This document shows, piece after piece, positions 21,925 through 25,841 of a DNA stretch of 64,000 nt. The stretch spans positions 65,395-129,394 of the forward strand of contig JAUWSQ010000002.1 in the NCBI GenBank assembly GCA_030609965.1, written 5' to 3'. Within the stretch, counting starts at the first letter, position 1. The number at the start of each line of letters is the position of its first letter. Source of the DNA: Candidatus Fermentibacterota bacterium (GTDB taxonomy: Bacteria > Fermentibacterota > Fermentibacteria > Fermentibacterales > JCC-6). The position numbers and the translations under genes were made by a program. The notes beneath the pieces were generated by a model, which made no database searches, was not told the DNA's origin, and saw only the letters and a program-made list of their open reading frames with translations.

Positions 21925-22284
21925 ATGAACAGAAGAGCTTTCACCCTGATTGAACTCATGATAGTTGTCGTAATAATCGGTATTTTATCTTCCATTGCAA
22001 TACCGAAATTCACTTCCATAAAAGAACAGACGAACGAAGCCGCATGTCGGTGCAACATGAGAGCCCTCGGATCGGCAGAAGCTCTCTACTACGCCCAGCA
22101 CAACCTGTTTACGAGTGTGGGTAATCTGTCTTCTTCGGGAGTCATGAGGAATGCCCATCTTCTGGAATGTCCGACTGCAGGAATAAGGTATGTGGTTATT
22201 CTGGAGAATGATACGTACAGAATTCCCTGTACTTCAGGTGCTGCTGATCATGGCAGCATGGATGATGGCCTCTCCAGCTGGTAA
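21925..22284 (+). CDS. Type IV pilin paralog, 119 aa, with Ala at position -1
   Basis: MNRRA|FTLIELMIVVVIIGILSSIAIPKF. GGGAGG RBS at 21915-21920. Shares CR.N.R.LGSAEA.YY and the C-terminal HGS..DG..SW with pilin 1. Start moved from 21913 to 21925. Confidence 0.85.
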   Translation: MNRRAFTLIELMIVVVIIGILSSIAIPKFTSIKEQTNEAACRCNMRALGSAEALYYAQHNLFTSVGNLSSSGVMRNAHLLECPTAGIRYVVILENDTYRIPCTSGAADHGSMDDGLSSW

Positions 22285-22288
22285 TCAG

Positions 22289-23857
22289 TTAGAATTCCAG
22301 TTCTAAACTGTAATCATGCACCTGCATCAATCTGCAGTATGATATTCTTTCGATGACAATATCAGGTGCAGATCGATCTGTTGAAGCTGATTCGTAGTAG
22401 TCAGCAGCCAGAGCCCATTCCTGCCTGTGTTCTGCAAGAACCCCTCTGTAATAGTCTGTTTTTCCGCCCCAGTGCTGCAGAAGTGATGGAACAGAGAGCA
22501 GAAACCACAAGAGCAATACAGCGAATCCTTTCCATGTGAGTTTACTTCTTCTCATAGCAATTGCCATGAGAAAAAGCAAAACTGAAATCGTGATCACCGC
22601 TCCCGCTGTACCAAAAATCCAAAGTGAATGATGACCATCAAGCATCATCGTCAGGCCGATATTCCACTGGGGAAGGAGGACGGGATTCTCAAAAGGATGA
22701 ACAGGCTGATGGATTTCTCCGAACGTACCGATAAGCGCAATAAGAATCGATGGCAGTACAAGCAAAGCAGCGATGAACAGATGCTTCCGGCTGATGCTTA
22801 TAAATTTCGCAAGTCCAATGACAAAAAACGGTATTATCGGGATAAGGTGCCTTGGTCCGAAAGCCCAGCCGCCTGTTGGCATGTAATAGGCTGAAAACAG
22901 GATAACATATGTAACTGTCATCAGAGGGAGCGGATTCTTCTTCAATACCGGGATTATCCGTTTCCCCTGGAAGAATCCTGCAATACCCAGAACCGTCCAG
23001 GGCATATAGAAGATAAGCCCTCGCTCGGATGAGAGAAGAAGAAGGTAGATCGCTTTGAGGGAAGGGAACGTAAAACCGAAGAGTCCTCTGCTCATTCCCT
23101 CAAAAGCATCAGCTGTTTCCAGTGAGTACCCCATGGTTACAGGGTTGCCGAATGCGATCCAGTTGTGAAGAAACTGAGGAATGAAAACCAGTATGATTAT
23201 TCGGACAAGTTTCATTAATGTACTGAGATTCCAGTATTTTCTTCCGCGATATGCCGCAAGAATCAGGAATGGCAGTATCACTGGAAATTCAACTGCTGTT
23301 GCCAGTGCTCCGAAGATATCCGCCTTAAGGTAATTCTTGCTGTTCTGGCAGTAGTAACTCATGAAAAGAAAGAATGCCGCCGGAACATGACCATACAGTA
23401 AAGTGGAGTAAGGTAGAAGAATGCTTCCTGCACCGAGAGCAAGCAAGGGAAGAAATATAGACTTTTCTTTTCTTCTGAGCATCTTTGAGATGAAAAACAA
23501 TAGAAGTACGAAAGAAATACCAGTGGAAAGACGTTCAGCGATGTACCTGTACGCTGATTGCGGTATATCAAGATTGGTTAGACCAGTTACTGCTTTAGTG
23601 ATTGCGTAGGGTATTGCTGCTATGATCGAGGTTAGTACAGCCTTGTCGCAGTAATAATGGTTTTTGAAAAATGCTCTGTCATTCGTGTATTCTATATATG
23701 GATCGATAGTGATGGAAGCATTATCAATCAACTGTCTTGAAAGAGCCCATCTTGTGACCACATTGTCGTAGGGGTAGGGATGGAATACAGAAAGAACTGC
23801 GAGAGATACCAGCAGAATAATCATCAATGGATAAATTCTGGTTGTTGACTGAGGCAA
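22289..23857 (-). CDS. Polytopic membrane protein, GT-C-like (predicted)
   Basis: 522 aa with more than 12 helices. The first-loop DNVVTRWALSRQL...NDRAFFKNHYYCDKAVL resembles the Y(F/Y)xDKPP loop of ArnT/PMT_2-type enzymes. Convergent with pilin 2 (4-nt gap). Confidence 0.5.
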   Translation of the reverse strand: MPQSTTRIYPLMIILLVSLAVLSVFHPYPYDNVVTRWALSRQLIDNASITIDPYIEYTNDRAFFKNHYYCDKAVLTSIIAAIPYAITKAVTGLTNLDIPQSAYRYIAERLSTGISFVLLLFFISKMLRRKEKSIFLPLLALGAGSILLPYSTLLYGHVPAAFFLFMSYYCQNSKNYLKADIFGALATAVEFPVILPFLILAAYRGRKYWNLSTLMKLVRIIILVFIPQFLHNWIAFGNPVTMGYSLETADAFEGMSRGLFGFTFPSLKAIYLLLLSSERGLIFYMPWTVLGIAGFFQGKRIIPVLKKNPLPLMTVTYVILFSAYYMPTGGWAFGPRHLIPIIPFFVIGLAKFISISRKHLFIAALLVLPSILIALIGTFGEIHQPVHPFENPVLLPQWNIGLTMMLDGHHSLWIFGTAGAVITISVLLFLMAIAMRRSKLTWKGFAVLLLWFLLSVPSLLQHWGGKTDYYRGVLAEHRQEWALAADYYESASTDRSAPDIVIERISYCRLMQVHDYSLELEF

Positions 23858-23996
23858 TGCATTCCTCTCGGAGGGTGTTAGAACACTGTGATGTCCTGAT
23901 ACCTGATCAGTTCAATACAACCATATAATATTCGTATGATACAGGAAAGCAAATTGTATATCGGAGCAATAATACATAACAAGTATTGACATCCTT

Positions 23997-25841
23997 ATGC
24001 AGTTGCGGATACAATCTCCTGTTGCTGTTGCCGCGTGTCGAAAGGATATTTTGAACAGGATTTTTGAGTTTCTCTGGATAATAGTCCGCTTAACAGTATT
24101 CTGGTTAGCAGTTTACGGTTTTGGTGATATCGTTCGACATTACATTAAAAAGCTCGGCTGCGAATCACCTGTTGAGTTTGCGGGTATTGCAGGCCTGCTT
24201 GCTTTTTCGATTCCTTTAAGCCTCATGGGAGTATTCAGCAGGCCAGTACTAACGGCATTTCTTCTGATCGGCGCATTAATCAAAATAGTAACATCAATCC
24301 GGTCTAAACATGAGCGTATGCGCTTCAAGTTCTCCCGATTACATGTGGTGATACTTCTTATTCTTGCAGGTTTCATTCTATTATCAAATACAATGAGAGC
24401 GTCTGAACCACAATCAAATCCCGACGCACTGGTAACATATGCAGTTCAGCCTGATCGATGGCTGTCGTCCGGCAGGATATTCTATATTGAGGAAAGTATA
24501 TTCTCTGGATTGCCATCGGTTGGTGAAGTACTTGCCGCGTGGCCGGCTTCGCTTTCGCAATCAAGAACTGATCAGCTATCCCTTCTGCAGGTATTCCAGA
24601 TGAGTATGCTTCTGTTATCTGCCTATGCAGCATGGAGGATCCTTGGCAGAGGTAAAAAAGGTTTACTGATAACAGTCATTGCCTGCATGGTCACATCCAT
24701 GCTTGCAGGATGGGCTTCACTGGCGAAAATAGAGATGACAGTTCTGTATTTTTCGACGGTTGCCATATGCCTGCTTTACAAAGGATACATCGGTAAAGAT
24801 GGGAAGTTCGATCCAGTTCCCTTTCTGGCCATGGGATTGGCCCTGAGCACCAAGCTTACAGCACACATACTGCTTCCATCCTTTCTGCTCATAACTTTCG
24901 CCATCCCGCAATACAGAAGACTGAAGACAATTCTTGTATGGGGCGCGATTGTATTGCTGATACCGCTTTCATTTGCTGTGAGAACGATTCTGCACACCGG
25001 AGCACCTTTCTATCCGCTTTCAATTTCATTTCTCATGGCTGATGAGGATCATACGATTCCAGAGGTTCCACGGATTACTGAACTGGCTCTGGAGAATGCA
25101 GCGCCGAATGATCAACTGGTTAATACAGAGCCGGAACCATTATTCGTAAATATTTCTGAATTGATCACTTCCTGGAGTTTACCGGCATTGATCTTTCTGA
25201 TGGGCATGATTTCTCTGGCCATGCGGCGGAAATTATCCAGCGCCTTGCTGCCGATGGCTGCTGTGCTCCTTTACTGTCTTTTAGCATCAGTTGCATTCAA
25301 TCCTCTCAGATGGGGCGCGAAATATGCATTTCTTATGTCACCTTTTATGGCGGCAGTTGGAACGAGATGGACAGAAGAACTGAACTTCCCTCGAATATCA
25401 TTCTATGCGTTCCTGATCATTGTGGTGCTTACATCGTCACTTGCACCTCGGTTCGAGTACGTAAGAGCCTTTCCTGGAATGTCGTCATCACTGGATTTCA
25501 GACCTCCGAACATTGTAATGGTTAAAGCGCTGCATGACTGGTGTAATGAAAATCTTCCCGCGGGATCCACACTTCTATCATTATGGAATAGGGAGAGATA
25601 TTTCTCGGATCATGTGGTTATTGTGCTGGAAAATCATCCTCTTGGCAGGCGTCTGTTCCTGGTTGATAATCTTGAAGATGAAATGGAACTGCTTCAAATG
25701 ATGAATATTGACTATGTATATTTCCAGACTTCGGATCCTATGCCTGGAGACCTTGAAAGCTCTATTGAGCTGCTGCAATCCGACAGGCTTGAGTATGTTA
25801 CCGAGGTGTCGGAATATACTTTATGCAGAGTACTTTATTGA
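23997..25841 (+). CDS. Polytopic membrane protein, GT-C-like (predicted); paralog of 6040-7917
   Basis: 614 aa, full-length similarity to the 6040-7917 product (see that entry). Confidence 0.5.
   Translation: MQLRIQSPVAVAACRKDILNRIFEFLWIIVRLTVFWLAVYGFGDIVRHYIKKLGCESPVEFAGIAGLLAFSIPLSLMGVFSRPVLTAFLLIGALIKIVTSIRSKHERMRFKFSRLHVVILLILAGFILLSNTMRASEPQSNPDALVTYAVQPDRWLSSGRIFYIEESIFSGLPSVGEVLAAWPASLSQSRTDQLSLLQVFQMSMLLLSAYAAWRILGRGKKGLLITVIACMVTSMLAGWASLAKIEMTVLYFSTVAICLLYKGYIGKDGKFDPVPFLAMGLALSTKLTAHILLPSFLLITFAIPQYRRLKTILVWGAIVLLIPLSFAVRTILHTGAPFYPLSISFLMADEDHTIPEVPRITELALENAAPNDQLVNTEPEPLFVNISELITSWSLPALIFLMGMISLAMRRKLSSALLPMAAVLLYCLLASVAFNPLRWGAKYAFLMSPFMAAVGTRWTEELNFPRISFYAFLIIVVLTSSLAPRFEYVRAFPGMSSSLDFRPPNIVMVKALHDWCNENLPAGSTLLSLWNRERYFSDHVVIVLENHPLGRRLFLVDNLEDEMELLQMMNIDYVYFQTSDPMPGDLESSIELLQSDRLEYVTEVSEYTLCRVLY

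Follow-up and report, generated by a model that had tools for sequence, protein, structure and literature searches.

Type IV pilin genes linked to genes for predicted GT-C fold membrane proteins in a Candidatus Fermentibacterota locus, and a pilin with alanine at the prepilin cleavage site

Introduction

What is a cluster of sugar-biosynthesis genes doing between two type IV pilin genes, each of which is accompanied by a gene for a large membrane protein, and what does it mean that one of the two pilins carries alanine in place of glycine at the prepilin cleavage site? The question is raised by a 64,000-nucleotide stretch of DNA (the window) from a Candidatus Fermentibacterota bacterium. The window comprises C38:65395-129394 of a 2.62-Mb metagenome-assembled genome (MAG) that is 80.7% complete, and homologs of its proteins were found solely in Candidatus Fermentibacteria, Aegiribacteria, Sabulitectum and Hyd24-12 MAGs. 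An earlier note on this DNA had proposed that two modules, each of a pilin and a membrane protein of the glycosyltransferase C fold (GT-C), bracket the sugar genes and have co-diverged as pairs, and that the alanine may mark the second pilin as inefficiently processed or as a minor or regulatory pilin. The observations of that note were confirmed, and its interpretation was supported in part.

GT-C pilin glycosylation has one studied example, TfpW, the pilin D-arabinofuranosyl transferase of Pseudomonas aeruginosa group IV (Pa5196/PA7) (bioRxiv 10.1101/2020.04.19.049825). Herein, homology, the GT-C fold, synteny, promoters and selection were established for the locus in the window. On balance, we regard it as the major-pilin locus of a Fermentibacterota type IV pilus, fused to a periplasmic glycosylation system.

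Results

DUF8201 proteins of the locus have a predicted GT-C fold

The membrane protein next to pilin 1 (DUF8201-A, 625 aa; 6040-7917, minus strand) and the one in the pilin 2 module (DUF8201-B, 614 aa; 23997-25841, plus strand) share 31% identity over 609 columns (BLASTP, E 5e-84). The two had been called full-length paralogs, a claim that would fall if a proper alignment detected no homology; at this E-value the homology is clear, and the paralogy stands over the full length. In addition, the window holds a third, distant copy, DUF8201-C (12745-14508, minus strand), which was not mentioned in the earlier note and is 26% identical to DUF8201-B over 238 aa. The family name follows from precomputed matches to Pfam PF26626 (DUF8201), which are present in orthologs that share as much as 80% identity with DUF8201-B, in many A-type orthologs and in the ortholog of copy C in locus L014.

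A search of the PDB sequences with the DUF8201 profile gave no match, and the family was therefore placed by fold comparison only. The AlphaFold2 model of DUF8201-B, built with 19 homologs, had a predicted local distance difference test score (pLDDT) of 84.6 and a predicted template modelling score (pTM) of 0.88. When it was compared with the PDB by Foldseek, the top ~30 matches were all GT-C enzymes at probability 1.0 and template modelling scores (TM-scores) of 0.4-0.5, among them STT3, ALG9, AglB, DPY19, ArnT, PglB, Pmt4, EmbB, PimE and AftB. In the predicted model, the C-terminal alpha/beta domain, to which a periplasmic location is assigned, resembles the periplasmic domain of AglB. The motif YxVQPDRW, with D143 and D153 in DUF8201-B, is invariant in the family and occupies the loop just after a strongly basic one (residues 103-114). 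The basic loop is presumed to be cytoplasmic, a topology that comes from the positive-inside rule only, and the YxVQPDRW loop would then fit the periplasmic catalytic loop of a GT-C enzyme. Judged from these models, the DUF8201 paralogs are GT-C fold proteins.

An exhaustive profile search returned 31 representatives at E <1e-30. Bit scores then fell steeply, from ~446 for the weakest near-full-length member to ~100 for the next full-length proteins, and a broad family followed, with 433 representatives at E <1e-10 and 2795 at E <1e-3. A further word-indexed search with the DUF8201 alignment added three more distant relatives only. On one 12.5-kb metagenome contig of the Joint Genome Institute (L066), two distant DUF8201 proteins are encoded together with PMT_2 and two proteins of glycosyltransferase family 87 (GT87), and a pilin gene is absent. 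Beyond Fermentibacterota, DUF8201 is found in multi-GT-C clusters of this different sort.

Pilin and DUF8201 genes are linked across the phylum

Scanning the genome contigs with the DUF8201 profile yielded 40 loci, all from Fermentibacterota, which were annotated with the window proteins. Their core order is pilS, pilR, the gene for a TMEM260-like protein in some, one or more pilin genes and a convergent DUF8201 gene, and it is retained even where the enzymes are only ~30% identical. A pilin gene stands tail-to-tail beside a DUF8201 gene in nearly all loci with enough flanking sequence. Linkage to pilins was demonstrated only for the Fermentibacterota branch of DUF8201.

The window follows this order. 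A PilS-like sensor histidine kinase (1011-2666, plus strand; NCBIfam histidine-kinase matches), whose place ahead of pilR and the pilins is conserved in relatives, precedes a PilR-like sigma-54 activator with receiver, AAA+ and HTH_8 domains (2635-4065, plus strand; Pfam Sigma54_activat at 6e-64, Response_reg and HTH_8). Next come the TMEM260-like gene (4062-5402, plus strand), pilin 1 (5606-5974, plus strand) and DUF8201-A, which is tail-to-tail with pilin 1. Two tandem PilB-type ATPases and PilT are encoded directly upstream of the window (C38:60897-64764). Another PilT-like ATPase is encoded within it at 37262-38098.

Between the pilin 1 module and the pilin 2 module lie ~13 kb of sugar-biosynthesis genes (8892-21607, minus strand), as the earlier note had described. 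The G+C content of this island is 36-45%, compared with 46-50% for the flanks. In two relatives (L023 and L034) the order is pilin 1, DUF8201-A and a 304-aa gene, then pilin 2, a 522-aa gene and DUF8201-B, followed by obg and dprA. Since the modules stand back to back without an island there, the island of the window is a variable insert between conserved modules.

The two pilins are paralogs with separate sigma-54 type promoters

Pilin 1 (MKKG/FTLIELM, the slash marking the cleavage site; mature length 118 aa) and pilin 2 (MNRRA/FTLIELMIVVVIIGIL; 21925-22284, plus strand; mature length 114 aa) are 53% identical over 124 aa (BLASTP, E 8e-45), and the description of pilin 2 as a diverged paralog of pilin 1 with Ala, not Gly, at the cleavage site (MNRRA/FTLIELM) was correct. 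Both have a class III signal peptide, both exceed the cut-off of Pfam N_methyl PF07963 (34.3 and 35.7 bits against 21.2), and the first 28 mature residues of pilin 2 are nearly identical to those of pilin 1. A GGGAGG ribosome-binding site lies 7 nt upstream of pilin 2. Mature Ser26, Ser45, Thr92 and Ser106 are conserved hydroxyl residues of the pilins, as are Ser66, which lies in the alpha-beta loop, and the penultimate Ser.

When the 200 nt that precede the -1 codon were scanned, the sigma-54 pattern TGGCA-N6-[TA]TGC was found at 37 of the 41 pilin genes in the loci, compared with 0.023 occurrences expected per 200 nt, and 35 of the 37 motifs were at a distance of 52-96 nt. Both pilins of the window have such a -24/-12 motif, TGGCAAAGATATTGC at 5525-5539 (plus strand) for pilin 1 and TGGCAAGTATTATGC at 21856-21870 (plus strand) for pilin 2. 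The pilin 2 promoter is identical in L014 and reads TGGTAAGTATTATGC in L034. The locus also encodes the PilS-like kinase and the PilR-like activator described above. Pilin 2 is a second, separately sigma-54-promoted pilin paralog of the major type that is present in only part of the genus. The reading of pilin 2 as a classical minor pilin was rejected in view of its own sigma-54 promoter and its major-pilin-like N-terminus.

Downstream, pilin 1 has a strong intrinsic terminator hairpin (5996-6029, plus strand; an 11-bp stem of -19 kcal/mol, then TTTCTTT), which was recognized by RNA folding and sequence and is absent from the consensus terminator scan list. The pilin 2 stop codon and that of the convergent 522-aa gene are 4 bp apart (22282-22291), and no such hairpin was found between them. 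Transcription of pilin 2 would then run antisense into the 522-aa gene.

The globular head domain of the pilins also occurs elsewhere in the genome. A 318-aa predicted lipoprotein (MNKLLISSALFFLLLLLSC...; C51, ~8740-9700, minus strand) has three tandem copies, each terminating in HGxIxDGxxSW, and a 126-aa lipoprotein (C5, ~2078-2450, minus strand) has a single copy. The open reading frame for the triple-domain lipoprotein is also present in four relatives (G031, G033, G034 and G036). The head domain is therefore reused outside pili, and these lipoproteins could be further acceptors of the GT-C enzymes.

Two further predicted GT-C families and a putative sugar-donor pathway lie in the same 26 kb

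The gene that faces pilin 2 tail-to-tail and diverges from DUF8201-B encodes a protein of 522 aa (22289-23857, minus strand). It had been called GT-C-like and unrelated to the paralogs, and both descriptions held: it shows no significant similarity to the DUF8201 paralogs (best BLASTP E 0.14), yet its model (12 orthologs; pLDDT 75, pTM 0.82) matched the GT-C structures ALG12, ALG6, EmbB, ALG9 and AftB by Foldseek. There is also a weak NCBIfam match to the putative glycosyltransferase LA_3751/3752. YPYDN (D31) is invariant in the family directly after the first transmembrane segment, in a topology that comes via the positive-inside rule only. By its model, the 522-aa protein is a GT-C fold protein.

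The product of 4062-5402 (446 aa), encoded between pilR and pilin 1 and thus directly upstream of the latter, was not mentioned in the earlier note. Eight of nine orthologs match PF11028 (best E 1.7e-5), whereas the window protein itself scores 20.7 bits, slightly below the cut-off of 24.2. In the PDB, the sole match of the profile is human TMEM260 (9rql_A; E 3.1e-7, residues 29-388). By these profile matches it belongs to the TMEM260-like/DUF2723 family. Five GT-C fold genes of three families (TMEM260-like; DUF8201-A, -B and -C; the 522-aa ALG/Emb-like protein) are therefore contained in a 26-kb locus.

DUF8201-A is abutted by the gene for the 304-aa protein (7918-8832, minus strand), which had no Pfam or NCBIfam match. 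It adjoins DUF8201-A in 13 loci and is co-conserved with it. Three internal repeats are visible by eye: GKCNFLAFDELGNSY, GIYSINAVDQIGRKY and GYYSVLVTDEYDAEYY.

The island encodes a methyltransferase, an ATP-grasp ligase, a metallophosphoesterase, two epimerase/dehydratases of the short-chain dehydrogenase/reductase (SDR) type, a DegT aminotransferase, a hexapeptide acetyltransferase, a Gfo/Idh/MocA oxidoreductase and a 468-aa protein without an assigned family. It also carries DUF8201-C, a flippase-like LPG_synthase_TM protein of the MprF-TM type (14505-15425, minus strand) and a glycosyltransferase family 2 (GT2) protein (19128-20081, minus strand) whose best NCBIfam matches are polyprenyl-phosphate-sugar synthases of the AglJ, PpgS and ArnC types. 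GT-C enzymes are typically supplied by a gene set of this kind, and those of the locus would accordingly draw on a polyprenyl-phosphate-monosaccharide donor, to judge from the gene content.

Pilins are the best candidates for the acceptor

Given the GT-C fold and the phylum-wide linkage to pilins, pilin-directed glycosylation is the best reading of the locus; most likely, the pilins are sugar-coated by the GT-C enzymes, as the gene arrangement suggests. A possible but rather doubtful alternative is that the GT-Cs act on a different glycoconjugate of the envelope, for instance lipid A or the lipopolysaccharide (LPS) core in the manner of ArnT, a lipoglycan or an S-layer protein, and that their genes adjoin those of the pilins only as members of one hypervariable region for surface structures. 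Several findings favor it or weigh against pilins as the acceptor. DUF8201-C lies inside an Arn-like module (GT2, SDR, aminotransferase and flippase-like protein), where a lipid or polysaccharide acceptor is possible. The fold matches of the locus include ArnT, Emb, AftB and PimE, and the Foldseek TM-scores are moderate. Distant DUF8201 relatives occur in GT87/PMT_2 clusters without pilins, so a tie to pilins is not a property of the whole family. Three genomes that have no pilin 2 ortholog anywhere (G031, G032 and G033) retain DUF8201-B and the 522-aa gene. Unlike the co-transcribed tfpW and tfpO, the DUF8201 genes converge on the pilin genes, and the DDX and proline-rich motifs of TfpW were not found by regular-expression searches of the relevant loops of the five GT-Cs. 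In addition, the pilus reading has to accommodate that no match to the prepilin peptidase PilD (PF01478, Peptidase_A24) was found in the 80.7% complete MAG itself; PilD was found in 27 of 31 relatives, and it is missing here probably because the assembly is incomplete.

On the other side, the tail-to-tail adjacency of pilin and DUF8201 genes is kept across the whole phylum whereas every other neighbour varies, which is not what chance co-location predicts. A TMEM260-type enzyme is placed between pilR and the pilin, and the only enzyme of its family to have been characterised O-mannosylates proteins. Moreover, the compact loci L023 and L034 contain pilins and GT-Cs with no polysaccharide genes between them. 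These points lead us to prefer glycosylation of the pilins. The possibility of N-glycosylation was also considered, since STT3-like proteins are among the top matches and N-L-S occurs in most pilin 2 orthologs; it was rejected for now, because WWDYG is missing and pilin 1 has no sequon.

Gene distribution does not support fixed pairs of DUF8201 paralogs and pilins

The earlier note had read the two modules as co-evolved pairs, DUF8201-A with pilin 1 and DUF8201-B with pilin 2, possibly differing in glycoform or acceptor specificity. Support was obtained for the GT-C fold and for an evolutionary link to pilin genes across the phylum, whereas the co-divergence of two pairs did not stand as stated, and we consider such pairing improbable. 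What speaks for it is that a separate DUF8201 copy adjoins each of the pilins in the window, L023 and L034, and that purifying selection acts on both pairs of paralogs, which are old. The pairwise comparison that had been suggested gave identities (53% for the pilins and 31% for the enzymes) but no dN/dS (ratio of nonsynonymous to synonymous divergence), as dS is saturated between pilin 1 and pilin 2 and between DUF8201-A and DUF8201-B. From ortholog pairs instead (Nei-Gojobori), dN/dS was 0.21-0.40 for pilin 1, 0.15-0.18 for pilin 2, 0.14-0.16 for DUF8201-A, 0.17-0.20 for DUF8201-B and 0.18-0.21 for the 522-aa gene. Purifying selection on pilin 2 is thus indicated by its codons.

The distribution of the genes argues against fixed pairs. 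Pilin 2 is patchy across relatives and is missing from G031, G032 and G033, as noted above. At the level of loci, L017, L022 and L024 have the GT2, acetyltransferase, oxidoreductase, 522-aa gene, DUF8201-B and obg but no pilin 2, and a whole-genome search of these genomes found pilin-1-type genes only (51-54% identity to pilin 2). Conversely, DUF8201-B is absent from L014, the only other locus with an Ala(-1) pilin 2, where the 522-aa gene accompanies this pilin. In the Fermentibacter-type loci L026, L027 and L029, B-type DUF8201 copies adjoin pilins that are linked to pilS and pilR, one of which is near pilin 1 in a poorly resolved tree.

A maximum-likelihood tree of 48 DUF8201 proteins separated a clade A (26 rows) whose genes face pilins tail-to-tail, three B subclades divergently transcribed from the 522-aa gene, and a long-branched clade C beside the flippase-like gene. 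The pilin tree is short and poorly resolved, and its pattern does not mirror that of the enzymes; co-phylogeny was therefore assessed from presence and absence. The DUF8201 tree, in which the A/B split spans the phylum, indicates an ancient A/B duplication, with the 522-aa GT-C rather than pilin 2 as the fixed partner of B. We thus lean towards A and B being ancient paralogs with different fixed partners, namely the pilin and the 304-aa protein for A, and the 522-aa GT-C for B.

In many Fermentibacterota (L026, L029, L038, L039, L041, L042, L048 and L050), a single DUF8201 gene is preceded by two pilin genes in tandem. Most of the tandem pilin genes have a sigma-54 motif of their own. Such arrangements show that pilins are often duplicated, and that this does not depend on duplication of the enzyme.

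Ala(-1) is an uncommon natural variant of the prepilin cleavage site

Among 14 pilin 2 orthologs, 12 begin with MNRKG or MNRTG and two with MNRRA (that of the window and P0053 in L014). The -1 codon is GCT (Ala) in pilin 2 and GGT at the same place in pilin 1. Two DNA patterns run against 70 genomes of the phylum found 134 Gly-FTLIELM sites and 5 Ala-FTLIELM sites, and Ala(-1) accounts for ~3.6% of the xFTLIELM sites that these two patterns found. Apart from pilin 2, the Ala sites belong to four in-frame pilin-like genes (MNRARRA/, MKNRRA/, MNRNA/ and MNKRA/) in loci L062-L065 of genomes G063, G064 and G066, which represent a different genus (g14) of the same family. Their head domains are unrelated to those of the window pilins. 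Two of the four genes end in long (GGQ)n repeats. Ala(-1) is kept among related pilin-like genes, and its presence in unrelated ones of another genus indicates that it arose more than once.

The two Ala-bearing pilin 2 genes differ from each other with a dN/dS of 0.18 at a dS of 0.46, and selection therefore went on after the change to Ala. Reportedly, Ala was the sole partly tolerated substitute in the P. aeruginosa mutagenesis of Strom and Lory (1991), with only partial cleavage. The PilFind paper gives the residue at which PilD cleaves as Gly or Ala (PMC3244431). Collectively, and as far as genes can tell, this settles that Ala(-1) is a rare natural variant that persists under purifying selection and would be no defect. 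We infer that the Ala(-1) prepilin is cleaved, and somewhat favor a single G-to-C change that the prepilin peptidase of this lineage would tolerate. Since Ala is a natural variant, rules for finding pilins should accept it.

No support was found for the view that Ala(-1) marks pilin 2 as poorly processed, minor or regulatory. That pilin 2 is poorly cleaved or uncleaved, and a low-abundance, regulatory or decaying paralog, appears very unlikely to us, for although Gly(-1) is overwhelming in the phylum, cleavage after Ala was reportedly only partial in P. aeruginosa, pilin 2 lacks a terminator hairpin with its stop close to a convergent one, and several relatives dispense with it, this reading is opposed by continued purifying selection between the Ala-bearing genes, a conserved sigma-54 promoter and ribosome-binding site, an N-terminus like that of pilin 1, the natural recurrence of Ala(-1) in genus g14 and the published acceptance of Ala by PilD.

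Discussion

If the pilins are the acceptors, a scheme analogous to that of TfpW in P. aeruginosa group IV can be proposed; the acceptor and the sugar, like the cleavage above, are inferred. The cytoplasmic enzymes of the variable island would tailor a nucleotide sugar, the ArnC/AglJ/PpgS-type GT2 would place it on polyprenyl phosphate, and the flippase-like MprF-TM protein would carry the loaded sugar across the membrane. The TMEM260-like, DUF8201-A, -B and -C and 522-aa GT-Cs would then transfer sugars to the pilins in the periplasm, with the lipoproteins that bear the pilin head domain as possible extra acceptors.

A more far-reaching form of this proposal, which we put forward tentatively and think less probable, is that DUF8201 is a GT-C family not characterised before, with a branch in Fermentibacterota devoted to modifying type IV pilins. 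Together with the TMEM260-like and ALG/Emb-like GT-Cs, it might build a multi-sugar O-glycan stepwise from polyprenyl-phosphate-monosaccharides, on the head domain of the pilins and of lipoproteins with one or three copies of it. The island might set the glycoform and so provide a hypervariable coat, for instance against pilus-specific phages.

Anaerobic digesters and sediments commonly harbor this candidate phylum, throughout which the pilin/GT-C linkage is conserved. For Pfam DUF8201, the locus provides an initial functional context that can be tested, and for the TMEM260-like family it provides a bacterial one.

Several known systems resemble the locus in part. TMEM260 is a protein-specific O-mannosyltransferase of metazoans (PMC10214176). 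The family of the 4062-5402 product shares PF11028 with it and has human TMEM260 as its only PDB sequence match; however, the relationship is very distant (a profile match at E 3e-7), and the 446-aa protein has no counterpart of the long C-terminal tetratricopeptide repeat (TPR) region of the 729-aa human chain. As for STT3, AglB and PglB (glycosyltransferase family 66), WWD, and hence their WWDYG motif, was not found in any of the GT-C proteins. The ArnC/ArnE-F/ArnT pathway likewise combines a GT2 polyprenyl-phosphate-sugar synthase, a flippase and a GT-C with DegT and SDR enzymes, and ArnT is among the fold matches, but the locus lacks the ArnA formyltransferase and ArnD, has a flippase-like protein of the MprF-TM type and is tied to pilins rather than lipid A.

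TfpO/PilO of P. aeruginosa group I and PglL of Neisseria also carry out pilin-linked glycosylation in the periplasm with an undecaprenyl-linked donor, and mature Ser66 in the alpha-beta loop and the penultimate Ser of the locus pilins recall their Ser63 and C-terminal Ser sites. Those enzymes are Wzy_C/O-antigen-ligase proteins that transfer preassembled oligosaccharides, whereas the genes of 2635-28521 gave no Pfam match to a Wzy_C or O-antigen ligase domain.

The nearest likeness is to TfpW itself, a GT-C whose gene adjoins pilA, which needs a GtrA-like or ArnE/F flippase and with which sugar genes cluster in some species (bioRxiv 10.1101/2020.04.19.049825). Common to both are polytopic GT-Cs of ~600-650 aa that are encoded beside the major pilin gene and whose C-terminal domain is periplasmic, by prediction in the case of the locus; sugar-donor genes, which cluster with pilA and tfpW in some species; and, as predicted for the locus, a polyprenyl-phosphate monosaccharide donor together with a small flippase, both of which TfpW needs. 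The differences are nevertheless considerable. The GT-C genes of the locus are convergent with the pilins (DUF8201-A and the 522-aa gene) or upstream of them (the TMEM260-like gene) instead of downstream and co-transcribed; DDX and YX6PFX7P were not found; the C-terminus is TPR in TfpW but alpha/beta in the predicted model of DUF8201-B; three unrelated GT-C families with five genes take the place of one; the sugar pathway is of the amino-/acetamido-sugar type, not that of DprE1/DprE2; and the host is a candidate phylum. By analogy, the system would work like TfpW, although none of its genes is a member of the TfpW family. As far as its genes indicate, the conserved pilin/DUF8201 linkage would thus represent a variant of pilin-associated GT-C glycosylation, in which the Ala(-1) of pilin 2 is an ordinary point.

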